DNA from: a bacterium
Lineage (GTDB): Bacteria > Patescibacteriota > Minisyncoccia > UBA11713 > 2-01-FULL-45-33
Direction: 5' to 3'
DNA length: 54,804 nucleotides
NCBI GenBank assembly: GCA_030648495.1
Contig: JAUSHV010000045.1
Span: 1 to 54,804, forward strand
Shown: one piece after another, positions 3,499-47,553 of the stretch
Numbering within the stretch: the stretch's first letter is position 1
How the letters are laid out: each line of letters begins with the position of its first letter
The notes under the pieces: generated by a model
Seen by the model: only the letters and a program-made list of their open reading frames with translations
Databases searched by the model: none
What the model was told of the DNA's origin: nothing
Translations under genes and position numbers: made by a program

Positions 3499-5094
3499 CT
3501 ACATCTTCTCGGGGGCGGCAATGCCCATCAAGGTAAGTGTTTGTTTTAGAGTTTTTTTGGTTGCCGAAACCAAAGCCAGGCGGGCTTGGGTTAGCTCTTT
3601 ATTTTTCGTATCTATCACTAAACATTTTTCATAAAAATTCGTAAAGGTTTGCGCGAGTTCGTAAACATATTTAGTGAGCCTGTGTGCTTGATAGTCATCG
3701 GTAATGTCTTCGATAATTTCGTGGAGCTGAAGTATTTTTTTGATGAGAGCCAGTTCTTCGGGCTTATCAAGAAGCATAAGGTCGGCTTTCTTGCCCGGCT
3801 TCCCTTTCCGTAAAATACTGCATGAACGCGCGTGCGCGTATTGAACATAATATACGGGATTTTTCTTGCTTCTTTCTTTTGCCAAATCCATATCAAAATC
3901 CATGTGGGTATTTGGGCTACGTTCCAAAAAGAACCACCTCGCGGCGTCTACCCCGACTTCTTTTAACAATTCATCCAAAGTCACAAACTCTCCGCTCCGC
4001 TTGGACATTTTTACTTCCTTTCCTCCTGAAATTAAACGAACAAGCTGCATGATAATAATTTGCAATCTAGCCGGCTCAACACCAATCGCCTCCACGCCTT
4101 TTTTCATGCGCTCTATATAGCCATGATGATCCGCTCCCCAAATATCTATTGCGATATCAAATTTTCTTTTCATAAATTTGTCATAATGATAGGCTAAATC
4201 AGCCAAAAAATAGGTTGACTCTTTATTGGACTTTATTACCACGGCATCTGCCAACCATAGAGCGCCTTCTTTTTCATGAAGAACTTTTTTCTTATTTAAA
4301 AATGTAAGGATTTTTTTTAGCTCGTTTTTTTTGTGCAAATTTTTGTCTTCCGAATACCAGACATCAAATTTTATTCCTGCTTTTATAAGAGATACTTTTA
4401 TTTCTTTAAGCAAACTCGCTGCCGCCTGCGCCGCCGTTTTTTCTTTTAATTTTTTGATGTATTCGCCCTTATAAAGCTCTTCGCGCGCGGGGATTTTTCC
4501 TTCCGCCGCCAAAATGGACTCGCCTAAAAGCTTTATCTGATTTCCGGCATCATTTATATAATATTCGCGAGTAACTTTGCGTCCAACAGCACTCAAAACA
4601 TTCGCGAGCGCATCGCCGTAAAATCCTCCTCGTCCATTTGCCATAGTTAAAGGCCCCGTCGGATTCGCTGAAATAAATTCTATGTTGATTTTTTTGCTAG
4701 TCTCGCGCTTTCCGTTTCGCTCGGTCTTAACCCTCTCTCCGGGGGCTCCGACGCCCTCGCGCTCCGAAAAACGCTCGCCTCTTCGCGAAAAAATCGAAAG
4801 GTTTTCGACTAAGGCCTCGCGCGCAATAAAAAAATTCAAAAAGCCTGGACCTGCGGATTCGATCCTTTCAATGATTTTTCCCAACTTGGGAGCTCGGCTT
4901 CCAAGCGTGGCTTTCATCCATTCCGCAACTTCTTTCGGTCCGCCAGCTGGCGGATTTCCAATTTTCTTAGCCAGCACCAAAGCAATGTTCGATGAATAAT
5001 CTCCATGCTCGGAGTTCTCCGGGCGTTCAACGGAAAAAACCGTGCCCTTTGGCACCAATTTTTCTATTTCTTCTCTAATTTGCGCGCGAAACAT
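3499..5094 (-). CDS. argS: Arginyl-tRNA synthetase
   Basis: 531 aa. Motifs: EFISANPTGPL, DIWGADHHGY, KMSKRSGEFVTLDELL, and a C-terminal anticodon-binding helix region ending ..GIAAPEKM. Confidence 0.9.
   Translation of the reverse strand: MFRAQIREEIEKLVPKGTVFSVERPENSEHGDYSSNIALVLAKKIGNPPAGGPKEVAEWMKATLGSRAPKLGKIIERIESAGPGFLNFFIAREALVENLSIFSRRGERFSEREGVGAPGERVKTERNGKRETSKKINIEFISANPTGPLTMANGRGGFYGDALANVLSAVGRKVTREYYINDAGNQIKLLGESILAAEGKIPAREELYKGEYIKKLKEKTAAQAAASLLKEIKVSLIKAGIKFDVWYSEDKNLHKKNELKKILTFLNKKKVLHEKEGALWLADAVVIKSNKESTYFLADLAYHYDKFMKRKFDIAIDIWGADHHGYIERMKKGVEAIGVEPARLQIIIMQLVRLISGGKEVKMSKRSGEFVTLDELLKEVGVDAARWFFLERSPNTHMDFDMDLAKERSKKNPVYYVQYAHARSCSILRKGKPGKKADLMLLDKPEELALIKKILQLHEIIEDITDDYQAHRLTKYVYELAQTFTNFYEKCLVIDTKNKELTQARLALVSATKKTLKQTLTLMGIAAPEKM
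4696..4795. repeat. Repeat family B copy, in frame inside argS
   Basis: 4727-4754 (ttaaccctctctccgggggctccgacgc) matches the reverse complement of 33651-33678 at 27 of 28 positions. Flanking blocks tctcgcgc and cgctcgcct are also shared. Visibly GC-richer than the rest of the gene. Confidence 0.8.
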
Positions 5095-14369: not shown

Positions 14370-14399
14370 AGCCTTATTATGTCTCTTTTTTTTGTTTTG

Positions 14400-14749
14400 T
14401 GGAAGTGCCGGGAATCGAACCCGGGTCGGAAAAGTTTGAATTCGGCGGTTGACAAGCTTAGTTGCTCAGCGTTAGCCAAGACTTTTGCCCTTATTCAAAT
14501 GTTAAGGCGGGCTTATTTAACATTGCCTCGCTAATATTACACCCGGATTCTTCTTAGCGAGAATCAAAAGACCGGATGCCTACGCGTTAAGCGTAAGAAG
14601 TGGCAAGCTGCATTGGCGAACCAAAAACAGCAGCTACTTTTTTAAATAAGTTTGCACTTATTGTGTTGTGAAGATAATTTTAAGAGCGAGCTTCACATAC
14701 TCTGCCTGAACGCGTGAAACCGTACTCTTCCTCGAGGCCGATCACTCCC
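14400..14749 (-). ncRNA. ssrA: tmRNA (SsrA)
   Basis: Minus-strand 5' GGGAGUG pairs with 3' CACUUCC-A, giving a 7-bp acceptor stem with a G3-U wobble. T-arm CCGGG-UUCGAUU-CCCGG. Internal tag ORF GCA AAC .. TAC GCT TAA = ANLFKKVAAVFGSPMQLATSYA*. CCA is not encoded. smpB is adjacent. Confidence 0.85.
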
Positions 14750-14779
14750 ATATTGGTAAAACCTAAACCCTTTCCTCCG

Positions 14780-14871
14780 GCGCAACATTTTTTAAGACAC
14801 GGATATTTTCTTGCTAGAAAATTCCTCGTGCTTGCGCCGGTCGCGCTCGCAAGGTCTTCAAAAATATTCGC
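14780..14871 (-). repeat. Repeat family A, copy 1 (sense on the minus strand)
   Basis: The reverse complement aligns end to end with 14952-15041 and with rc(33517-33612). See findings. Confidence 0.8.
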
Positions 14872-14951
14872 CCTCGGGAAGCGTTATTTTCGGTTTTTTT
14901 ATTTAAACGAGAATAAAAATTTTACTGGCGCTTTCCTAAAGTTGGCGCGGG

Positions 14952-15041
14952 CGCAAACTTTGCAAGACCTTGCGCAGGGCGACGGCCCGAGCAGAGCAAT
15001 CCGCCAGCAGGCGGATATGCGTGTCCTTGCAAATTTTGTGC
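14952..15041 (+). repeat. Repeat family A, copy 2 (sense on the plus strand)
   Basis: gcaaactttgcaagaccttgcgcag-GGGCgacgGCCC-gagcagagcaat-CCGCCagcaGGCGG-atatgcgtgtccttgcaaattttgtgc. Confidence 0.8.
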
Positions 15042-15082
15042 CAAGACAACAGAAAGCGCTCGCTAAAATTTTTATTCCCTAT

Positions 15083-15529
15083 TCAAATCTCTTTCAAAGT
15101 TCTCTCAATCTTTCGCTTGTCCTCGCGCTCTTTGATGCGCGCCCGTTCGTCGTATTTTTTGAGCCGCCGCGCGACCGCAATTTCTAGCTTGATTCTGTTA
15201 CCTTTAGTATATACCTTTATTGGCAGTATTGTCAAGCCCTTTTGGGCGACCTTACCAAGCAGGTAATCAATCTCTTTTTTAGTCAGCAAAAGCTTACGTT
15301 CACGCGTGGGATTATATTCTTTCGGGGTGTTTTTTGGCTGATAGGGAGAGATATTCGCGCCGACCAGAAAAAATTCTCCGTGCCTAGGAAAAATATATGT
15401 TCCCTCTAAATTCATGTGGTGAGTTTTTACGGATTTCACCTCCAAACCCAAAAGTGAAATACCGGCTTCATAAGTTTCGAGCATCTCAAATTCGTGCCAC
15501 GCTTTTCTATTTTCCGCTAAAGAAGCCAT
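15083..15529 (-). CDS. smpB: SsrA-binding protein
   Basis: 148 aa: NRKAWHEFEMLETYEAGISLLGLEVKS.., and a basic C-terminal tail. Confidence 0.9.
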   Translation of the reverse strand: MASLAENRKAWHEFEMLETYEAGISLLGLEVKSVKTHHMNLEGTYIFPRHGEFFLVGANISPYQPKNTPKEYNPTRERKLLLTKKEIDYLLGKVAQKGLTILPIKVYTKGNRIKLEIAVARRLKKYDERARIKEREDKRKIERTLKEI

Positions 15530-22552: not shown

Positions 22553-22751
22553 GAGATACTGAAGTTAGAAAATGTTTGGCGATTTTCAGGAAACTGGATA
22601 GCCTGGCACAGGTAAAAGTGTGCACCCCATCGAATGTAAGTCCTTTTAGGCAACATCGACAGCGGTTTTACCGCACTGTGCACACTCTTACTCGTACCAC
22701 AATCATTGGTTCTTTCTAAAATTTTTTTCTCTCAATGGGGCTTGCCCCAAC

Positions 22752-29754: not shown

Positions 29755-30209
29755 TTTTTGGAAATTATTTTTTCAACCATTGCAATCTCATCCCAAATGC
29801 CTTCAATGAGCTCGTACTCTCTGGCCTCTTCGAGCGAAACCCATTTATAATCGGTCAAATCTTTACAAAGCATTACCTCTCCGCTTTTCCAATTACACCA
29901 ATAAGATAACGTAATCACCGGGAATCCATCAGGTCTGACAAATAATAAATCGGTTAAATAACTTGGATTTTCTATTTCCAAACCAACTTCCTCGCGCACC
30001 TCTTTTGCCAATAGCCAATTTATTATTCCATACCACGCGTCCTTAGTTGTTTTAGGAACATCTTTATATTCCGAATAAACCAACTTTCCGCCGGGCACTG
30101 TCCACATATTCGGATAAGCTTTCTCCGTTGGCGCGCGCTTGGCAATTAAATATTTTCCGTCGCGGACGATTATGGCGGTAGCAACAACAAAATGCAATCT
30201 AGGATCCAT
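29751..30209 (-). CDS. NUDIX hydrolase
   Basis: Nudix box GGKLVYSEY..LAKEVREEVGLEI. Confidence 0.8.
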   Translation of the reverse strand: MDPRLHFVVATAIIVRDGKYLIAKRAPTEKAYPNMWTVPGGKLVYSEYKDVPKTTKDAWYGIINWLLAKEVREEVGLEIENPSYLTDLLFVRPDGFPVITLSYWCNWKSGEVMLCKDLTDYKWVSLEEAREYELIEGIWDEIAMVEKIISKK

Positions 30210-30814
30210 TACTCGAGTATGCCATCTAAGTTAATATCGTAAAGAATCGCTTCTCCTACCAATTTATATTTTATGAGCTCCTCTTTATTAAACCAGAGAA
30301 CAATTTCTTTTTCGGCGTCATCAGTTGAACCGGAAGCGTGTATTAGATTTCTTACGGCCCTTCCGTCAATATCCGAAACCTCGTATGAGTCTATTGTAAG
30401 GTCTCCGCGGATAGTACCCACATCCGAAGTTAAAGGCTCCGTTCCTCCGGTAATTTTTCTCACAACTCCTACCGCGTGCATCCCCTGCCAAACCATAGCA
30501 ACTACCGGACCCTGTACCATGTATTTTTTCAGGTTACCCAAAATAATCTCGGTAACTTTCAGCGGGTCTTCCGAAGGAGGGCTTTTCCCTTTTTTCAGAT
30601 ACGATTCAATCGTCTTTTTCCCAGTTTTCATGCGCCATTCCGGATCCACCAAATAATGGCGCTCCACGAGTTCCGCCGTTGGAATAAGCATTTTCATGGC
30701 CGCAAGTTTTAATCCGCTGCGCTCATAACGGCAAATTATCTCGCCAATCAGGCTTCTTTGAACTCCGTCGGGTTTTATTAAAACCAAAGTTCGCTCTTCT
30801 TTTGGGTGTGTCAT
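30209..30814 (-). CDS. ndk: Nucleoside-diphosphate kinase (long form)
   Basis: RTLVLIKPDGVQR and NLIHASGS (active-site His), with a ~45-aa internal insertion. Confidence 0.8.
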   Translation of the reverse strand: MTHPKEERTLVLIKPDGVQRSLIGEIICRYERSGLKLAAMKMLIPTAELVERHYLVDPEWRMKTGKKTIESYLKKGKSPPSEDPLKVTEIILGNLKKYMVQGPVVAMVWQGMHAVGVVRKITGGTEPLTSDVGTIRGDLTIDSYEVSDIDGRAVRNLIHASGSTDDAEKEIVLWFNKEELIKYKLVGEAILYDINLDGILE

Positions 30815-31354: not shown

Positions 31355-32232
31355 CCCGAAATTAATTTCAATGTGCCGTTGCTAATGCTTAACTTAATCG
31401 TTCCGTCCAAGTCAGTGCGGAAAATTTTTGCACCGATAGCTTCCAGATTTGAAAGTGTTTGTTGGGTAGGATGTCCGTAACGATTTTTTGCGCCAACCGA
31501 AATTATGGCATATTCGGGTTTTGTGGCTTCGAGAAAAAATGTATTGCTTGAAGTCTTAGAACCGTGATGCCCGACCTTTAAAACATCTATGTCGCCGACC
31601 GCGTCCTCATAAACAAGCCGCGCCTCTATATTTTTCTCCGCATCTCCCATAAATAAGATTTTTTTGTCTTCAAAATTAAGCTCGCCGACGACGGTGGCGT
31701 CATGCACGTTTTTAAGGACCTCTCCATCATACGAGCGTTCCGGATACAAAAATTTCAAAACTGCGCCACCATAGAAATACATTTCTACAGGGCTATCAAT
31801 AATAATTTTTTTAATATTTTTAGCTTTTATAATCCGCTCAAATTCATGATATTCAGCGGTGTTATAGTCGGCGCCGCTCTCTATTACCATACCGATCTTG
31901 TATCGATTAAGCACATCTATAAGCCCTGTAACATGGTCGGCGTGTTGATGCGTGAGTATTACCAAATCAATTGAATTATCATAGTACGGCATTACACGAC
32001 CTAACTCCGAAAGAACTTTTGTGTTCGGTCCGCCATCGATTAATATTTGTGTGCCGTCCTTGGCCGATATAAATTCAGAATCTCCCTGCCCCACATCAAA
32101 AAAATAAACAGAGAGATCCGGTTCCGCCGCTTTTTTAAAAACAGAGGACCAAATAACAAAATTAAAACCGAAAAACAACAATATTACACAGCTTAAAATT
32201 TGTTTTCTATAAATTTCAAAAAACTTTCGCAT
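31348..32232 (-). CDS. comEC: ComEC C-terminal metallo-beta-lactamase domain, as a separate ORF
   Basis: N-terminal TM segment, FFDVGQGDS, ILTHQHADHV, VGHHGS. Confidence 0.8.
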   Translation of the reverse strand: MRKFFEIYRKQILSCVILLFFGFNFVIWSSVFKKAAEPDLSVYFFDVGQGDSEFISAKDGTQILIDGGPNTKVLSELGRVMPYYDNSIDLVILTHQHADHVTGLIDVLNRYKIGMVIESGADYNTAEYHEFERIIKAKNIKKIIIDSPVEMYFYGGAVLKFLYPERSYDGEVLKNVHDATVVGELNFEDKKILFMGDAEKNIEARLVYEDAVGDIDVLKVGHHGSKTSSNTFFLEATKPEYAIISVGAKNRYGHPTQQTLSNLEAIGAKIFRTDLDGTIKLSISNGTLKLISGK

Positions 32233-33823
32233 AATGTTTGTATGCCCAATAAAAAAGACATGCGTAAACCGACGCCAGCAAGAAGAAAGGCAAAAAACTA
32301 AATTGAATCATGCTAAAAGAAAGCGACCCGAAAAATTTAACAAAATAGATTTGATAAGAAATCAATAAGTAAGCCGCGCTTGCGATGATTTTTCCTAAAA
32401 ACACGGAGGCGAAAGCTGATATCGCACCTAAAAAACTAAAAAGCATAACGGCAGGCACCGCCCATAAAACAAGTATATTGACCAATGGGGAAAACCAAGA
32501 AATCGCCCCACCCCAGGATAAAAGCAGCGGCATAACGAAAATTTGCGCCGCAAAAGAAGATGAGGCGTTTTCCCGCAAACCGAAGGCTTTGGGCAGAAAC
32601 CAAAAAAACTTTTTAAAAAAAGGCGATGCGACAATAAGGCCTAGTGTTGCTAAAAAAGAAAGCTGAAACCCACGGTCAAAACGCATGAGCATCGGATTCC
32701 ATAAAACCATCAGAAACGCCGCCCAAATCAAGGCCAAGAGCGCGATATTTTTCCGCCCGCTTTTTAACGCCAAAAGTCCGATTATAGCCATAACAGCTGA
32801 ACGCACAGCTGCGGCCTCTGCCCCGGACATTAATGTAAAAGCCAAAATGGCAAATATTGCCAAACTCCATGCCGCCGTTTCAGAAACAATAAATCCAAAA
32901 AACGCCATTACAAATACTCCGACAATCGTAATATTGTAGCCCGACAAAACCAATATATGGATAGTCCCGCTTTTTCTAAAATCATCAATTAAATCTTTGT
33001 CCAAGACGCCCTGGTTTCCTAAAAGCATCCCGTCGGCCAAAGAAGCGTGCGGTTCAGGTAAAATATTTCTTAGATTTTCTTCAAATTTATCTTTGATGAA
33101 GAAAAGCGCGCTCTTTGCCTTAGTACCAAACAAAGTTTGTGTTTTCGTCAAATCGCTGACTTCAGGAAAAACCATCTCCGCGTAAATTTCGCTCTTTGCC
33201 AGATATTTTTTAACATCAAAATTTCCGAAGTCTTCCGGCTCCAAAATTTTTCCTTTTATCTCCAAAGTGTCGCCGTATTTATACTGCGGATAGATTCTTT
33301 TCGTTACCAAAATGCGGCCGAGGTCCGTCGAAACAACTATGCGCTGGGAATTTTCTGTCAGTTTCGCGGAGATAACCATGCCGCTCAAATTCATAACTTC
33401 ATCGTAATGCAAATGCAATTCGTCTTTTGCAATATTATTTTCAAAATATGAAAAACGCAGGATGCCGAGGAGGAAAAAGAAAATGAGCAGACAAAGCATT
33501 GCGCCCTTTACCTCAGCACCAAAGTTTCCAAGGACACGCATATTTTTCTGCTGAAAAATTTCTCTGCTCGTCCCGCCATGGCGGGACTGCGCAAGGTCTT
33601 GAAAACTTTGTGCTTTCGGTTCAGGCGAGCGCTGTTCGTATTTCGAATGCGCGTCGGAGCCCCCGAAGAGAGGGTTAAGCGCGAGAAATACGAATAGCGC
33701 AAGCATGAACCCTAACAAACCAAAAACCAAATAATTAGGAATATCAAAAAACGAGCGAAGCGCTACTCCGGTCAAAAACGCAAGAATTAAAAATGGGATT
33801 TTAAAATAAGCGCGCTGGTTCAT
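32216..33823 (-). CDS. comEC: ComEC/Rec2 competence channel, membrane domain
   Basis: 535 aa polytopic protein with an OB-like N-domain and the competence domain (HILVLSGYNITIV..). Overlaps the MBL ORF by 17 nt. Confidence 0.8.
   Translation of the reverse strand: MNQRAYFKIPFLILAFLTGVALRSFFDIPNYLVFGLLGFMLALFVFLALNPLFGGSDAHSKYEQRSPEPKAQSFQDLAQSRHGGTSREIFQQKNMRVLGNFGAEVKGAMLCLLIFFFLLGILRFSYFENNIAKDELHLHYDEVMNLSGMVISAKLTENSQRIVVSTDLGRILVTKRIYPQYKYGDTLEIKGKILEPEDFGNFDVKKYLAKSEIYAEMVFPEVSDLTKTQTLFGTKAKSALFFIKDKFEENLRNILPEPHASLADGMLLGNQGVLDKDLIDDFRKSGTIHILVLSGYNITIVGVFVMAFFGFIVSETAAWSLAIFAILAFTLMSGAEAAAVRSAVMAIIGLLALKSGRKNIALLALIWAAFLMVLWNPMLMRFDRGFQLSFLATLGLIVASPFFKKFFWFLPKAFGLRENASSSFAAQIFVMPLLLSWGGAISWFSPLVNILVLWAVPAVMLFSFLGAISAFASVFLGKIIASAAYLLISYQIYFVKFFGSLSFSMIQFSFLPFFLLASVYACLFYWAYKHYAKVF
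33517..33612 (-). repeat. Repeat family A, copy 4, in frame inside comEC
   Basis: rc = cacaaagttttcaagaccttgcgcag-TCCCGCCatGGCGGGA-cgagcagagaaat-TTTTCagcaGAAAA-atatgcgtgtccttggaaactttggtg. Confidence 0.85.
33623..33690 (-). repeat. Repeat family B copy, in frame inside comEC and adjacent to repeat A
   Basis: rc(33651-33678) matches 4727-4754 at 27 of 28 positions. Shares tctcgcgc and cgctcgcct. Confidence 0.8.
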
Positions 33824-37148: not shown

Positions 37149-37924
37149 TGCGCCGCCTCTCCGGCCTCTTTTACTATTTTAATAAATTCCTGCGCCCTTA
37201 GACTGGCTCCCCCTACCAAAAGCCCATCCATGTTTCCGTCTTTAATAAAAGAAGCGGCATTTTGAGAGGTAACCGACCCGCCATAAATAATAGGAATCTT
37301 TGAAGCAATATTTTTACCGGCGATTTTATAGAGGTCCCTGCGAATCAATATCGTTATTTCAAAAGCGTGTTCGGGCGTTTCCGCGTGCCCCGTACCTATC
37401 GCCCAAATCGGCTCATAAGCAACTATTAGGTTTCTTAAAATCGTCTTTTTTATTTTTGAAAGCGCCAAATGAAGTTCTTGGCGCATGATAACCGGAAAGG
37501 CTTCTTCTTTATTCCTCTCTTTCTCTCCAATACAAAGAACTGCTTTCAGTCCTCCCTCCAAAACGGTTTTTAACTTTTTTTGGACAATCTCATTTGTTTC
37601 GCCCATTGCCCTCCTTTCAGAATGTCCGACTATGACAAACCCTACGCCAAATTGTTTGATTTGCGCCAAAGAGACCTCTCCGGTATATGCGCCTCCGCCA
37701 GCTGGCGGACCTTTTTCATAAAATACGTTCTGCGCCCCAAGCTTTATTTTTTTAGCTTTTCCTGCGAACTTGGCAACCGCCGGCAGATATATGGTCGGGG
37801 GCACAAGCACGACATCCATATTTCTTAAGCTATGGGGTTCCGCAGAAACTTTTCGCGCAAGTTTTACCGCGTCGGAGAGCGTTTTGGGGTTCATTTTCCA
37901 GTTACCAATTATAATCTTTTTCAT
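37145..37924 (-). CDS. tpiA: Triosephosphate isomerase
   Basis: IIGNWKMN, VGHSERR, AYEPIWAIGTG, YGGSV. Confidence 0.92.
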   Translation of the reverse strand: MKKIIIGNWKMNPKTLSDAVKLARKVSAEPHSLRNMDVVLVPPTIYLPAVAKFAGKAKKIKLGAQNVFYEKGPPAGGGAYTGEVSLAQIKQFGVGFVIVGHSERRAMGETNEIVQKKLKTVLEGGLKAVLCIGEKERNKEEAFPVIMRQELHLALSKIKKTILRNLIVAYEPIWAIGTGHAETPEHAFEITILIRRDLYKIAGKNIASKIPIIYGGSVTSQNAASFIKDGNMDGLLVGGASLRAQEFIKIVKEAGEAAQ

Positions 37925-39680: not shown

Positions 39681-40433
39681 CTATACTTTTGTTAGAACTT
39701 CCACGCCGTTTTTTGTGACTACCATTGTATGTTCAAAATGTGCCGAGCGGGAGCCGTCGCGGGTGAGCCATGTCCAGCCGTCTTTTGCGAGTTTTACTTT
39801 AAAATTGCCCTCTGTAGCCATAGGCTCGATAGCTATAACCTCTCCTTCACGGAGCTCCGGCCCGTCGCCGCGATGCCCCCAATTTGGTATCTCGGGCTCC
39901 TCGTGAACGGCGCTTCCAACGCCGTGGCCCACAAGTTCACGAACCACGCCGAAGTCTTCTTTTTCTAAACATTGCTGTATTGCAAATCCTATGTCGCCGA
40001 CTCTCACGCCGACACGGACTTGGGCAATTCCGATTTCCAAAGATTTTTTTGTTACATCAATTAATTTATTTTTACCGCCTCCTACTAAAAGCGTCATCGC
40101 GGTGTCCGTAAATAATCCATCGTACCGCATTCCGATATCCAATCCGACCACGTCGCCATTTTTCAAAGCTCGGCCATTTGGTATCCCGTGCACAACCTCT
40201 TCATTTATAGATACGCAAAGAGTTCCGGGATATGCTGTTGGAGCTCCGTAAACTTTGTATCCTTTAAACGACGGCTTGCCGCCTACTTTTAAAATTAATT
40301 TTTCTGCAAGTTCATCTAATTCTTTTGTTGTAACCCCTTCTTTGGCGGCCTCCGAAACCTCAACCAAAATAGCGGCAAGTCGCTTGCCGCCATCCCGCAA
40401 AATTTCAAGTTCTTTTTTATTTTTGATTATCAT
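39681..40433 (-). CDS. map: Methionine aminopeptidase type I
   Basis: VVHGIPN, DIGMRYDG, GHGVGSAVHEEP, IAIEPM. Confidence 0.92.
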   Translation of the reverse strand: MIIKNKKELEILRDGGKRLAAILVEVSEAAKEGVTTKELDELAEKLILKVGGKPSFKGYKVYGAPTAYPGTLCVSINEEVVHGIPNGRALKNGDVVGLDIGMRYDGLFTDTAMTLLVGGGKNKLIDVTKKSLEIGIAQVRVGVRVGDIGFAIQQCLEKEDFGVVRELVGHGVGSAVHEEPEIPNWGHRGDGPELREGEVIAIEPMATEGNFKVKLAKDGWTWLTRDGSRSAHFEHTMVVTKNGVEVLTKV

Positions 40434-41095
40434 AAATTCAATGCTTTTATGATGTCTTTATGGGTATCTTCAATAGATTGTTCGCCGTTGATAATTTTTA
40501 CCCTGTGCAGGCCTTCAATGAATTTTATGGCCGGAACTGTTTTCTGGGCATACTCATCAGTCCGCATCTGAAGCACTTCTTTTTGGTCAAGATCGCGGGT
40601 CTCCAAAACGCCGTCTCCCTCGGGGCATTTTGTCCCCGGTGTAAAAACATCTGAACGGATATAAACATGCCTGCTGTCGCGGTTGCATATGAGCCGCTTC
40701 TCCACTCTTCTTTTGAACTCGTCCACGCTTATTTCTATCAACAATACGTAAACATTTTCTTTGCCCAATAATTTAACAACCTCAGGGAAAACGGCTTTGG
40801 CTTCGTATAATGTCCGCGGCGTCCCGTCATATATAATACCCTTAGCCGTTTTTATAATTTCTCGGGTCTTCTCCAATACTACGCGTGTAGTCCATTCAGC
40901 CTCAAAAAGCTTACCTGTCTTATAAAGCTCTACCTGCCGCTTTGTTTGTTCGTCATCATGGCTATTTATGTATTCTTTGCCCTCGCGGCTCGTAGTAAAA
41001 TGGTAAAAACCCATTTTCTCCGCCAAAATTTTAGCTTGAGTTCCTTTGCCGGAAGCGGGACGACCAAAAAGAAAAATAGCGACTTTTTTATCCAT
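40430..41095 (-). CDS. adk: Adenylate kinase
   Basis: GRPASGKGTQA P-loop. Trimmed to MDKKVAIFLFG. Sits in the secY-adk-map context. Confidence 0.85.
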   Translation of the reverse strand: MDKKVAIFLFGRPASGKGTQAKILAEKMGFYHFTTSREGKEYINSHDDEQTKRQVELYKTGKLFEAEWTTRVVLEKTREIIKTAKGIIYDGTPRTLYEAKAVFPEVVKLLGKENVYVLLIEISVDEFKRRVEKRLICNRDSRHVYIRSDVFTPGTKCPEGDGVLETRDLDQKEVLQMRTDEYAQKTVPAIKFIEGLHRVKIINGEQSIEDTHKDIIKALNL

Positions 41096-41096
41096 A

Positions 41097-42359
41097 TTAT
41101 TCGTACGCGCGAAGGGAAATCTGGCCTTCAATTTGTTTGGCGGTCTCCAAAACTACGGAGACGACGATAAGAAGCGAGGTTCCTCCAATTGTAAGAGTGG
41201 TAATGCCAGTTGCTCCCTGCAAAAGCGACGGCATGACGGCGATTATTCCCAAAAACAAAGCTCCTGCAAGCGTGATGCGGCTCACTATCTTGTAAAGATA
41301 TTCTGCCGTATTGCGCCCGGGGCGGATGCCCGGCACAAATGCCCCGCTTTTTTGCAAATTAGTAGAAATGGCGCTTGGATCAAAAGTTACGAAAGTATAA
41401 AAATATGTAAATAGAAAAACCAGAATAAAATAGCCCAAAGCATGGTACCAATTATTAGCCAGAAAACCCAGGACAAAAGAAGATATGTTTTTAAGAATGA
41501 AATTTGAAGAGCCCGACAAAAAATTGGCTACCATCTGAGGAAGAAGCAAAATGGACAACGCAAAAATTATCGGAATAACTCCGGCTTGATTGACCCGCAA
41601 AGGCAAATAAGTAGTCGAGCCGCCGTACATGCGCATTCCCCTTACACGCTTCGCGTAGTAAACGGGAATAGGCCGCTCTCCCTCCGATATTACGATTACT
41701 GCGGCGATTGTGATAAGCGCAACGGCCAAAAAAGCAATGAGCGTCGGTAACTGCGATGGATCATAAGCTATCAGCGTTTGACGCGCGTCAGACGGAAAAC
41801 TTGCCACGATACCGGCAAAAATTATTATAGACACTCCGTTGCCGACCGAATACTCGGATATCAATTCTCCTATCCACATTAGGAGAATTGACCCGGCCGC
41901 GACTATAAGGAGGCTACCTAAGCGTTGAGACAAAGTAAAATGAAAGATTCCCTGCCGCTCAAAAATAGTTAAAAGCGCAAATCCCTGGACCAAAGCCAGA
42001 GGAAAAGTAAGTATTCTTGAATATTGGTTGAATTTTTGCCGACCGGCTTCGCCCTCTTCCTGATAAAGTTCTTTTAAACGCGGAATCATCATGGTCAAAA
42101 GCTGCATTATAATTGAGCCCGTAATGTAAGGGCCTACTCCCAGCATGACTATTGAAAGATTCGAAAGACCTCCGCCAGAAAAAACATTGAGCAGGCCGAA
42201 TAGCTGGTTTGCGGCAAAAAATTGCTTTAATTTATCGGCGTCTATTCCCGGTACGGGGATGGAAGCGCATAACCGAAACACCGCTAAAAACAGCAAAAGA
42301 TATAAGAATTTTTTGCGGAGGTCCTTGTCTTGAAAAATCAGCTTAGCTTTGTCCCACAT
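41097..42359 (-). CDS. secY: Preprotein translocase subunit SecY
   Basis: 420 aa, 10 TM segments, GVGPYITGSIIMQLL. Confidence 0.93.
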   Translation of the reverse strand: MWDKAKLIFQDKDLRKKFLYLLLFLAVFRLCASIPVPGIDADKLKQFFAANQLFGLLNVFSGGGLSNLSIVMLGVGPYITGSIIMQLLTMMIPRLKELYQEEGEAGRQKFNQYSRILTFPLALVQGFALLTIFERQGIFHFTLSQRLGSLLIVAAGSILLMWIGELISEYSVGNGVSIIIFAGIVASFPSDARQTLIAYDPSQLPTLIAFLAVALITIAAVIVISEGERPIPVYYAKRVRGMRMYGGSTTYLPLRVNQAGVIPIIFALSILLLPQMVANFLSGSSNFILKNISSFVLGFLANNWYHALGYFILVFLFTYFYTFVTFDPSAISTNLQKSGAFVPGIRPGRNTAEYLYKIVSRITLAGALFLGIIAVMPSLLQGATGITTLTIGGTSLLIVVSVVLETAKQIEGQISLRAYE

Positions 42360-46439: not shown

Positions 46440-46853
46440 TTAATTTCTTGCGACAAATCTTGTTCTAATAGGCAGTTTCGCCCCGGCCCTTCTTAGGGCT
46501 TCTTCTGCAACGTTCCGCTCGACTCCGTCCATTTCGAAAATAATACGTCCCGGAAGCACGGGGAAAACATAGCCTGCCACATCCCCCTTCCCTCCGCCCA
46601 TGGTTACCTCCGGCGGCTTGGCGGTTATCGGCTTATCCGGAAATATCCTTATCCAAACTTTTCCTCCTCTTTGGATATAATGCGTCATGGCTTTTCTCGC
46701 GGCCTCTATCTGTTTGGAATTTACCCAAAGCGCTTCTTCAGCTTTGAGGCCAAATGCGCCGAACGCTAAAGTCGTCCCACGAGTTTCCCGCAAGTTTCTT
46801 CGCGTGGCCATTCTCTGCCATTTTCTAAATTTTACTCTTTTTGGGTATAGCAT
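46440..46853 (-). CDS. rplP: Ribosomal protein L16
   Basis: MLYPKRVKFRKWQRM... Start overlaps the rpsC 3' end by 29 nt. The longer track N-terminus is rejected. Confidence 0.93.
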   Translation of the reverse strand: MLYPKRVKFRKWQRMATRRNLRETRGTTLAFGAFGLKAEEALWVNSKQIEAARKAMTHYIQRGGKVWIRIFPDKPITAKPPEVTMGGGKGDVAGYVFPVLPGRIIFEMDGVERNVAEEALRRAGAKLPIRTRFVARN

Positions 46854-47553
46854 AATGATTAAATATTTCTCCTCTATATATCCATACTTTAATGCCCAGG
46901 TCTCCATACGGCAAATGCGCACGCCCTTTCGCATAGTCAACATCCGCCCGCAATGTCTGCAAAGGCACCTGGCCATCTTTCAGCCACTCATAGCGCGCCA
47001 TCTCCGCTCCATCCAGCCGGCCGGATAAAGAAAGCTTGACTCCTTTTACTTCTTTTGCATTCATTATCTTGCCTAATGTTTGTTTCATCACGCGCCTGAA
47101 CGGCATTCTTTTTTCCAAATCCATCGCGATCTGCTCCACCATTATTTGCGCGTGCGCCTCGGGAATTTTCACTTCTTCCACGGTCAATTTCAAAGTCGGA
47201 GGTTTCTGCTCTTTTTTAATATCTTTTTTGGCATCTACCGCCGAGTTTTTGCCTGCCGATCTGTGCTTTTGTAAAAATACCGCCACTTCGGTTTGCAGTT
47301 TTGTAATACCTTCCCCGCCTCTTCCGATAATGAGTCCCGGACGGGCAGTCCTTATGATAATATTTAAAGCTGCGTTGGTGCGCTCTATTTCTATACCATC
47401 AACAAGAGTGCCTTTCAAGCGGATAGCCAAAAAATCGCGGAGCCTGACGTCTTCTTTTAATAATTTTGAAAAATCTTTTGCGTTAAACCAGCGCGACCTC
47501 CATGGCCGGATTATTGCCAATCTCATTGAATATGGATGTGAAGAATGACTCAT
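46825..47553 (-). CDS. rpsC: Ribosomal protein S3
   Basis: HPYSMRLAI.., KH domain GRGGEGI. Confidence 0.94.
   Translation of the reverse strand: MSHSSHPYSMRLAIIRPWRSRWFNAKDFSKLLKEDVRLRDFLAIRLKGTLVDGIEIERTNAALNIIIRTARPGLIIGRGGEGITKLQTEVAVFLQKHRSAGKNSAVDAKKDIKKEQKPPTLKLTVEEVKIPEAHAQIMVEQIAMDLEKRMPFRRVMKQTLGKIMNAKEVKGVKLSLSGRLDGAEMARYEWLKDGQVPLQTLRADVDYAKGRAHLPYGDLGIKVWIYRGEIFNHYAIPKKSKI

Follow-up and report, generated by a model that had tools for sequence, protein, structure and literature searches.

Long hairpins in coding sequence are found in fungal mitochondrial genes, which carry mobile GC-rich or double-hairpin elements. The mitochondria of Nematomorpha harbour coding palindromes, that is, long hairpins of the coding sequence in which complementarity is kept and which are dynamically gained and lost (PMC6649704). 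In bacteria, in-frame 'coding palindromes' were earlier described as a peculiarity of Rickettsia, the RPEs (Ogata et al., 2000, Science 290:347; Ogata et al., 2002, Genome Res, PMC186582; Claverie & Ogata, 2003, TiBS). As outlined in PMC6649704 and PMC3733652, these are short dispersed hairpin repeats of a small, reduced genome. They occur in non-coding DNA and, in frame and with the ORF preserved, in many unrelated housekeeping genes, where the inserted segment is predicted to fall outside the fold; no transposase is known to be associated with them. CGTC-tagged REPs (Di Nocera et al., 2013, PMC3733652), which include RPE-4, RPE-6 and the Neisseria dRS3, are units of 20–40 bp with 8–9 bp stems starting with A-T pairs, loops of 4–5 nt and a CCA tail, mostly arranged as head-to-head dimers. 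Finally, in-frame bacterial MITEs (for example the Coxiella QMITEs, PMC5896051; reviewed in PMC10969869) are non-autonomous, hairpin-forming, multi-copy elements that can add peptide segments to proteins; their terminal inverted repeats are conserved among copies, they generate target-site duplications and they usually have a parent IS. Full-text literature searches returned no paper linking Patescibacteria/CPR with intragenic RPE, REP or MITE elements, and a survey of REPs (PMC12306157) leaves Patescibacteria unmentioned.

We analysed a stretch of 54,804 nucleotides of Patescibacteria DNA (hereafter the window), in which an initial annotation had reported a 28-mer shared by argS and comEC. 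This 28-mer is the conserved apex of a longer (about 80-nt) hairpin element with covarying arms, which is probably a small, non-autonomous, dispersed hairpin repeat of Patescibacteria, like the RPE or REP elements. The reported identity of 27 of the 28 nt was recovered by a mismatch-tolerant DNA search, with exactly two sites in the window (4727–4754, plus strand, no mismatch; 33651–33678, minus strand, one mismatch), and BLAST stretches the match to 29 nt (4726–4754 versus 33679–33651, 96.6% identity). It is beyond chance, with no match in 100 dinucleotide-preserving shuffles and none expected. Both genes lie on the minus strand, so that, as had been proposed, argS and comEC read the repeat from opposite strands, as ..SEREGVGAPGERVKTERNGKRETS.. 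in ArgRS and as ..LNPLFGGSDA.. in ComEC. Both sites also contain tctcgcgc and cgctcgcct, the blocks described as shared flanks, which are parts of the GC-rich arms; the distance between tctcgcgc and the core is unequal (18 nt in argS, adjacent in comEC). The window, presented as AT-rich, is only moderately so (GC content 0.37–0.49), and the GC content of the two elements is 0.54–0.56. The idea of a real repeat that has inserted into two conserved genes and can be read through on either strand is supported by the repeat search, the orthologs and the ArgRS model. The features are listed in Table 1.

Table 1. Hairpin elements, host genes and associated repeats in the window (positions counted from its first nucleotide)
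Feature	Position	Strand	Evidence or remark
argS (arginyl-tRNA synthetase, 531 aa), host of copy 1	3499–5094	-	ORF list; homologs with Pfam Arg_tRNA_synt_N, tRNA-synt_1d, DALR_1
Hairpin element, copy 1	4700–4779	-	CM match 77.1 bits, E = 2e-13; MFE -40.6 kcal/mol
Apical core of copy 1, GCGTCGGAG CCC-CCGGAGAGA-GGG TTAAG	4726–4754	-	Conserved in both window copies
Flank encoding ..ENLSIFSR	4784–4808	-	Window aligned with L124, L004, L007
14-nt palindrome CCGCCAGCTGGCGG, coding 'PPAGG' in ArgRS	4940–4953	.	Also 15001–15014, 37695–37708
tmRNA gene	14399–14749	-	
Family 2, weaker third copy	14779–14876	-	
Family 2 intergenic copy, between smpB and tmRNA gene	14940–15052	+	
smpB	15083–15529	-	
comEC (535 aa; DUF4131 and Competence domains), host of copy 2	32216–33823	-	ORF list, domain matches
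Family 2 (second hairpin family), long stem and two apical hairpins	33510–33625	-	Fold z-score -5.4; repeats I2, I8
Hairpin element, copy 2	33624–33704	+	CM match 69.2 bits, E = 1.2e-11; MFE -54.3 kcal/mol
Apical core of copy 2, GCGTCGGAG CCC-CCGAAGAGA-GGG TTAAG	33651–33679	+	Conserved in both window copies

The core-sense strand of copy 1 is the sense strand of argS, and the element encodes ArgRS residues ~106–132 (GERFSEREGVGAPGERVKTERNGKRET). In the alignment of ArgRS orthologs this segment is present only in P0001–P0004; it is missing at 72–77% identity in P0005–P0007, P0009 and P0011–P0013, a different insert occupies the same site in P0008, P0010 and P0014, and the argS orthologs L004 and L007 also do without copy 1. 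The initial annotation had placed an insertion of about 30 aa just before ISANPTGPL: the position stands, and the length is better described as an excess of about 35 aa over the insert-free orthologs, made up of the 27-codon element and what is probably an older remnant arm. In L124, the same site of argS holds a different copy in antisense orientation, and one of its arms is almost identical to the flank encoding ENLSIFSR, a segment missing from the insert-free ArgRS orthologs; the flank is therefore probably the remnant of an earlier insertion. Residues 133–531 of ArgRS can be aligned to PDB entry 3FNR. In the AlphaFold model (mean pLDDT 84.7), residues 106–130 are the sole long unstructured stretch and the only segment below 50; devoid of secondary structure, they form a disordered linker that joins the N-terminal domain to the first strand of the Rossmann fold and directly precedes the ISANPTGPL strand. 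The insert is thus predicted to lie at the protein surface, outside the fold.

Between argS orthologs, the identity of the element is 0.87–0.91 (0.81–0.85 at third codon positions), compared with 0.63–0.78 (0.45–0.55 at third positions) for the rest of the gene. Where a compensated mini-stem takes the place of the apical loop, the peptide reads AHRLRWVK instead of APGERVK. Decaying selfish DNA would not be expected to be conserved above synonymous sites as this argS copy is, which could mean a function.

Copy 2 is in the other orientation, its core-sense strand being antisense to comEC, and is translated as ..LALFVFLALNPLFGGSDAHSKYEQRSP... Its hairpin extends to 33618–33711 and coincides with inverted repeat I1, with arms of 27 nt that are 85% complementary. 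A hairpin of a second family, with BLAST matches in other loci, adjoins copy 2 inside comEC, and together they form a composite insert of 53 aa (about 33521–33679) in the variable TM2–TM3 loop of ComEC. This insert is missing in P0123 and P0126 and partially deleted in the comEC of L055. The 'empty' ComEC alleles keep one arm, so gain versus loss cannot always be polarized.

Beyond the window, copies of the element share the motif GCGTCGGAG-CCC(variable loop)GGG-TTAAG between two arms that are complementary to each other and vary among copies. The element measures about 80–95 nt, compared with 100–150 bp for an RPE, and every copy folds as an imperfect long hairpin. Its base is formed by a GC clamp containing tandem G-A mismatches (5' GCGAR ... 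YGRAGC 3'), followed by complementary arms whose sequence is specific to the subfamily and locus, and then often by an A/T run. The top consists of an invariant asymmetric internal loop and a short helix, (GC)GUCGG-AGCCC(variable loop or mini-stem)GGGUU-AA(GC), the helix having 5 bp (A-U, G.U and three C-G) and loops of 3–15 nt before AA(G). The conservation of the core is partly imposed by the search pattern; three copies found independently of this pattern have cores differing at one, one and several positions, and a search with the arms only, meant as a core-unbiased sampling, returned already known copies only. By eye, the internal loop resembles a K-turn in its 3-nt bulge and G.A pair; the second pair is G.A and not A.G, and the variant cores do not fit. 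In Rfam 15, only the tmRNA of the window reaches the gathering score, and the element has no match with E <= 1 in six element-bearing loci.

The arms have a mean pairwise identity of 0.35–0.38, about random, with only the GCGAR/YGRAGC base common to the copies. Each copy folds with its own arms at about -40 kcal/mol, compared with -25 kcal/mol with the arm of another copy. Double changes occur in 23 of the 25 stem pairs of the CM alignment, and the covariation score of 0.471 (0.152 in shuffles, none of 500 reaching 0.471) falls to 0.19–0.20 once the pairing is shifted by a single column. RNAalifold on the gap-free MAFFT alignment recovers the apical helix only, as the arms are put out of register by bulges; a hand-specified structure with CM realignment recovers the stems. 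The pairing is moreover polar: the core-sense strand is the better folder in 39 of 41 copies, and its stem mismatches comprise 57 G.T versus 35 A.C and 144 purine–purine versus 47 pyrimidine–pyrimidine.

The strict core pattern matches 44 loci in one-genome-per-species contigs, with up to six matches per MAG. As 42 of the 44 are labelled Patescibacteria, the element is so far almost exclusive to this phylum and its motif is a near phylum-specific sequence marker. In metagenomes the pattern is found in 101 stretches, mostly from Rifle and Hainich groundwater. Carriage by phages was considered and rejected, as IMG/VR viral contigs do not contain the core pattern.

Among the 87 distinct metagenome copies, 57 (about two-thirds) lie inside ORFs of at least 150 aa, 24 in sense and 33 in antisense orientation, and the other 30 are in short ORFs or intergenic. 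Only the four of the six frames in which the core is free of stops are used. The hosts are more than 15 unrelated housekeeping genes, including those for ArgRS, LeuRS, PheRS, PolA, DnaG, RecG, UvrA, UvrC, TruB, MnmA and GatB; aminoacyl-tRNA synthetases and replication and repair enzymes are affected in particular. Some copies in operon spacers adjoin rplJ/rplL, nusG and smpB. Several unrelated families of inserts occur at the TruB site, where the hairpin element is present in both orientations; in TruB the arms belong to the insert and the short alleles have neither of them. The core is flipped between TruB orthologs with homologous outer arms. At orthologous sites of RecG and MnmA, the arms are wholly different and still complementary. 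Element copies at a locus are gained, lost, replaced and possibly flipped over evolutionary time. Within genes they persist only in permissive linkers or loops, where translation turns them into filler that is disordered and either hydrophilic or hydrophobic. The target of selection, or of homogenization among copies, is the nucleic-acid hairpin rather than the peptide. Some of the variation in length and of the unusual inserts that complicate the annotation, alignment and phylogeny of its host proteins is due to the element.

The likeness to the RPEs extends to all of the traits listed above. The present element, compared with them by description only, is however found in another phylum, and because its host belongs to Patescibacteria it would be at most an analogue. 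Its arms vary with full compensation around a short, invariant, asymmetric apical motif, and it uses both orientations and four frames. RPEs are moreover reported to decay, in the account of PMC6649704, whereas at least one Patescibacteria copy is conserved above synonymous sites. With the CGTC-tagged REPs it shares the lack of a dedicated transposase nearby and an occurrence inside replication/repair genes; the CGTC tag may be common to both as well, GCGTCGG being present in the core immediately 5' of a short stem-loop. The core reads G-CGTC-GG-AGCCC...GGGTT, with CGTC 2 nt from the apical helix and internal to a larger hairpin rather than terminal; the motif sits at the tip of an outer hairpin of 25–30 bp, the apical helix has 5 bp with a variable loop, and there is neither a CCA tail nor any dimer (none in 46 aligned copies or in the 87 listed metagenome copies). 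Unlike in MITEs, only 5–6 terminal nucleotides and the apex are conserved, and no parent element is present among the ORFs of the window or those adjacent to copies; a target-site duplication is not evident in the copies inspected. The mitochondrial elements of Nematomorpha and fungi differ in being organellar and are not known to carry a conserved apical motif shared across loci; in Nematomorpha, both arms encode conserved protein regions (PMC6649704). An analogous, structurally distinct family in Patescibacteria would mean that coding palindromes recur in independently reduced genomes.

How such a repeat could spread can be sketched as follows. The element would move as a folded single strand, DNA or RNA, with core-sense polarity; its conserved apical motif would be recognized by a trans-acting protein encoded elsewhere, and integration might occur in either orientation. 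The 30 large ORFs of the window scanned against Pfam include no transposase or reverse transcriptase, and clustering of 490 ORFs next to copies revealed no recurrent neighbouring gene family. No obvious direct repeat borders the copies inspected, and no clean empty-versus-filled junction can be defined at these hypervariable sites, the comparison orthologs being at most ~80% identical.

We may wonder whether the hairpin is instead a functional, non-selfish nucleic-acid module, with copies recruited at many loci as an RNA hairpin for protein binding or processing (an mRNA stabilizer, an inter-domain translation pause or an sRNA precursor) or as a maintained DNA structural site. The very strong covariation, an apical internal loop conserved across distant lineages, the argS copy conserved well above synonymous sites, the strand polarity, with G.U and G-A overrepresented on one strand, and the spacer copies next to rplJ/rplL, nusG and smpB would all suit such a role. 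However, a cis-acting RNA should be mostly in sense orientation, and the 24 sense versus 33 antisense copies show no orientation bias; the host genes are functionally unrelated, close orthologs lack the element, unrelated insert families occupy the same sites and Rfam holds no matching family. We therefore regard this explanation as rather unlikely.

A dispersed repeat also accounts better for the data than hairpins born in place by template switching or fold-back replication errors, with the core a non-mobile mutational by-product, which we consider very improbable. Template switching is a documented route to creating and homogenizing inverted repeats (PMC6649704), and would fit the arms of RecG and MnmA, the arm retained in 'empty' ComEC alleles, the flip of the TruB core and several Giovannonibacteria copies in which complementarity runs on into locus-specific flanks. 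This last feature is not general (own versus cross-locus control, p = 0.048), and errors in place explain neither an identical asymmetric core of 20–29 nt in more than 100 unrelated loci nor the whole-arm subfamilies common to ArgRS, the CCA-adding enzyme, GatB and a glycosyltransferase; in TruB the arms are within the insert. An inverted duplication of host flanks as the source of the arms, suggested by the one-arm alleles of ComEC and argS, was likewise rejected as a general rule because arm subfamilies cross unrelated genes, TruB short alleles are armless and flank complementarity is marginal. Least credible of all is the idea that the match reflects a protein module common to the genes, a chance similarity of low-complexity sequence or an artefact of assembly, in favour of which one can only say that the window is assembled sequence: no chance match is expected, the use of four frames on two strands leaves no common peptide, and independent assemblies of different projects (JGI Rifle, ENA and GTDB MAGs) carry the insert at identical positions of argS and comEC.

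Within the reading as a dispersed repeat, a broader proposal, possible although we doubt it, is that Patescibacteria have several structured hairpin families, the present one marked by its invariant apical recognition motif on stems that covary freely, and that these actively colonize, replace one another and flip in permissive loops of essential proteins, maintained by dedicated machinery (a single-strand hairpin nickase or transposase, a reverse transcriptase or an RNA-binding factor). If true, such families would represent a new kind of element, mobile or functional, and an unrecognized source of the lineage-specific protein insertions typical of ultra-small bacteria. The conserved apical motif on covarying stems offers a handle for finding the recognizing factor, and the family offers a way of testing whether such elements are purely selfish or put to use.

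Finally, it should be noted that a third, miniature class of repeats is present in the window, the palindrome CCGCCAGCTGGCGG, with three sites compared with 0.01 expected; in ArgRS, the position of the corresponding NPPAGGP peptide varies among orthologs.

The initial annotation had reported that a 28-mer in argS recurs in comEC, and the repeat is reproduced with a single mismatch; BLAST lengthens the shared match to 29 nt. Chance is indeed an unlikely explanation, dinucleotide-preserving shuffles of the window giving no match even with three mismatches allowed. Since both host ORFs lie on the (−) strand and the two 28-mer sites on opposite strands, argS and comEC read the shared DNA from opposite strands, as proposed. 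The two short flanking blocks noticed at the same time are also present, and are pieces of the GC-rich arms of a hairpin. By its ArgRS homologs the organism belongs to the Patescibacteria (Parcubacteria): those approximately 50–60% identical to the window protein come, where the source is named, from the Patescibacteria group, Giovannonibacteria, Harrisonbacteria and Sungbacteria.

Coordinates of the repeats, host genes and other features in the window (core-sense, the strand reading the core motif)
Feature	Position	Strand	Remarks
argS ORF	3499–5094	(−)	carries copy 1
Copy 1	4700–4779		core-sense is argS sense
28-mer TTAACCCTCTCTCCGGGGGCTCCGACGC	4727–4754	(+)	
28-mer, one mismatch	33651–33678	(−)	
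comEC ORF	32216–33823	(−)	carries copy 2
Copy 2	33624–33704		core-sense is antisense to comEC
Family 2 copy	33510–33625	(−)	in frame in comEC
Family 2 copy	14940–15052	(+)	smpB–tmRNA spacer
Family 2 copy	14779–14876	(−)	smpB–tmRNA spacer
14-nt palindrome CCGCCAGCWGGCGG	4940–4953, 15001–15014, 37695–37708		
Y-shaped hairpin	22595–22708	(−)	spacer between PolX-like and MFS genes
NDK	30209–30814	(−)	201 aa
Adenylate kinase	40430–41131	(−)	233 aa
Ribosomal protein S3	46825–47553	(−)	

Alignment of insert-bearing argS orthologs (window, L001, L005) with insert-free ones (L004, L007) shows that a segment of about 80 nt is either wholly there or wholly missing. Its centre can change, reading CCC-CCGGAGAGA-GGG in the window and CCC-ATCGTCTGCGAT-GGG in L005, a perfectly compensated difference; the scan pattern was therefore built with a variable loop (GCGTCGGAGCCC N{3,15} GGGTTAAG). 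Compared with one another and folded, the Patescibacteria copies all form a long hairpin. Its base has the pattern GC + GA ... GA + GC and carries a pair of arms, complementary to each other and each about 25 nt long, often with an AATTTTT/AAAAATT segment between arms and apex. The apex is invariant (GUCGG opposite AA in an internal loop, with closing pairs A-U, G·U and three C-G), and a variable loop or mini-stem forms the tip. A covariance model search at E ≤ 1 finds only copies 1 and 2 in the window.

The hairpin is the target of selection or homogenisation. Mean arm identity between copies is only 35–38%, and copies with their own arms fold at −39.9 ± 7.6 kcal/mol, compared with −24.9 ± 5.7 kcal/mol for chimeras with a foreign 3′ arm. 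RNAalifold on the plain alignment recovered the apex only, because bulges shift the register; 49 copies were realigned to a covariance model with its structure specified by hand. In this alignment both partners have changed in 23 of 25 stem pairs, the number of doubly changed cells is 360 (156 in shuffles), and the covariation score is 0.471, compared with 0.152 in shuffles (none of 500 reaching 0.471) and 0.19–0.20 when the pairing is offset by one column. The model also picked up three copies missed by the pattern scan, with one, one and several core changes; core conservation is thus high, not absolute, and core invariance among the pattern-scan copies is partly imposed by the search pattern itself. 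In 39 of 41 copies the better fold is that of the core-sense strand, and in the variable stems G·T exceeds A·C (57 versus 35, p = 0.03) and purine–purine mismatches exceed pyrimidine–pyrimidine ones (144 versus 47). These fold and mismatch biases suggest that the structure forms on one strand in particular.

At the protein level, the ArgRS segment first read as an insertion is absent from orthologs P0005–P0007, P0009 and P0011–P0013 (72–77% identical), in which ..ALxxALGNPVS is directly joined to KxxKKINIEFVSANPTGPL. P0001–P0004 carry the element, and P0008, P0010 and P0014 an unrelated insert at its site. ComEC homologs P0123 and P0126 pass directly from ..LALFVFLAL to NFGAEVKG..; the window ComEC has 53 additional residues at this junction, encoded by the core element followed by a Y-shaped hairpin of a second family (family 2). 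Whether the ArgRS insert is a surface loop had been posed as a question for modelling. In the AlphaFold model from the ortholog alignment, which is of good confidence (mean pLDDT 84.7, pTM 0.85), the only stretch with pLDDT below 50 is residues 106–130, predicted to be unstructured between an N-terminal-domain helix (92–104) and a strand (135–142) leading into the SANPTGPL signature; the closest solved ArgRS, 3FNR, aligns from residue 133 on. Besides, residues ~141–157 (SANPTGPLTMANGRGG) show TMAN in place of the class I HIGH signature. None of the 32 aligned Parcubacteria ArgRS departs from TMAN, and the canonical KMSKR is retained; at the TMAN position, 3FNR (Campylobacter) has LHIGHARG.

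The element is a dispersed, structured repeat nearly confined to Patescibacteria, and translation runs through it in four frames, at protein positions that are disordered or variable. In a one-genome-per-species collection, 44 loci match the pattern, of which 42 carry a Patescibacteria label (Giovannoni-, Taylor- and Nomurabacteria, Paceibacterota, 'Saccharibacteria'), with 3–6 matches in several MAGs. Metagenomes yielded 101 matching stretches, chiefly from Rifle and Hainich groundwater, and IMG/VR viral contigs none. Of 87 distinct metagenome copies, ORFs of 150 aa or more contain 24 in sense and 33 in antisense orientation, and 30 lie in short ORFs or spacers. Hosts recognised by sequence are ArgRS, LeuRS, PheS, PheT, TruB, RluA, MiaA, MnmA, GatB, the CCA-adding enzyme, PolA, DnaG, RecG, UvrA, UvrC, RNase HII, trigger factor, IscS, ComEC and a glycosyltransferase. 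On each strand a TAA closes one frame of the core; the other four are all in use (VGAPxERVK, ASEPPxRGLS, LNPLxGGSDA, LTLSxGAPTP), so there is no common peptide.

Among argS orthologs, nucleotide identity is 87–91% in the element (81–85% at third positions) versus 63–78% in the remaining gene (45–55%). Judged from these identities, it is the nucleic acid, rather than the peptide, that is kept or homogenised in this copy, and the loop swap APGERVK to AHRLRWVK points the same way. In RecG (L012, L042) and MnmA (L027, L048), pairs of proteins 65–67% identical carry the element at the identical residue position with wholly different yet complementary arms. TruB orthologs carry it at one site in opposite orientations, the inner unit being flipped between homologous outer arms with compensatory change, and in the Hainich ArgRS L124 the copy runs antisense, its upstream arm being the stretch found next to the window's sense copy (4784–4808). 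'Empty' ComEC alleles still contain one arm, and L055 ComEC a partial deletion. As read from these alignments, such cases show that a restricted number of permissive sites has repeatedly seen gain, replacement and partial loss, and probably in-place inversion. Copying of arms from the host flank was rejected as a general rule: unrelated genes share whole-arm subfamilies, short TruB alleles have neither arm and flank complementarity barely exceeds the control. The TruB site, a loop between TDTYDLLG and QKYPSFS (P0241–P0311; inserts such as ERSSDLL..GQTV, LRTVWPSFQKNxARRSEDLS and KISGPRVGSPDAEIL), has at least four unrelated insert families among 70 orthologs, plus short insert-free alleles, and is apparently a hotspot for in-frame repeats in general.

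The conservation of the element and the covariation of its stems favour a functional RNA or DNA role, the main rival explanation; orientation bias is absent, the host genes are unrelated and orthologs do without the element, which weighs against such a role and leaves it unlikely. GC skew indicates that the window is a single replichore, in which the two copies run in opposite directions, so that orientation is tied to neither transcription nor replication. We rather favour a dispersed repeat. No transposase or reverse transcriptase was found among 30 window ORFs, nor any recurrent neighbour gene near element copies, and the element would therefore be non-autonomous. It may spread as a folded single strand, with recognition of the apical motif in trans. 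Such a build, conserved at the apex and variable in the stems, would suit substrates in which a hairpin displays the site to be recognised or cleaved, for example those of HUH-type enzymes; no candidate of this type was identified in this analysis.

In its features the element may be likened to Rickettsia palindromic elements, which are in-frame, hairpin-forming, transposase-free and found in surface loops. Its core contains, internal to the larger hairpin, the CGTC tag of CGTC-REPs, which marks a REP superfamily including RPE-4 and RPE-6 (Di Nocera et al., PMC3733652), but the element departs from CGTC-REPs in the length and A-T start of the stem, the CCA tail and the dimers. It differs from MITEs in the conserved TIRs and parent IS, and no TSD was evident at the ends of the copies inspected. 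Rfam has no matching family, full-text literature searches turned up no account of elements of this kind in Patescibacteria/CPR, and a REP survey does not mention Patescibacteria (PMC12306157).

In family 2 a pair of hairpins tops a long stem (z-scores −4.7 to −5.4). Related copies lie in GatB (L021) and, in either orientation, at other ComEC positions in orthologs, with the peptides AQxxQDLAQ..MRVL and GHAYPPAGGLLCSGRRPAQGLAK. The Y-shaped hairpin between the PolX-like and MFS genes (MFE −46.2 kcal/mol, z = −5.1) showed no BLAST relation to either family. The 14-nt palindrome, with three sites versus 0.01 expected, reads PPAGG from both strands; the NPPAGGP peptide differs in position among ArgRS orthologs, and in some core elements (L029) the palindrome's mini-hairpin makes up the loop at the apex. 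In L056, the window's closest syntenic relative, a 220-aa reverse-transcriptase (RVT_1) ORF (515–1177) adjoins secY/adk, with no counterpart in the corresponding window region. Finally, NDK, S3 and adenylate kinase seem to exceed their Pfam models in length: the Pfam match of NDK falls in two separate stretches, and the KH domain of S3 spans 92 residues versus a 78-position model. All three may contain additional in-frame inserts.
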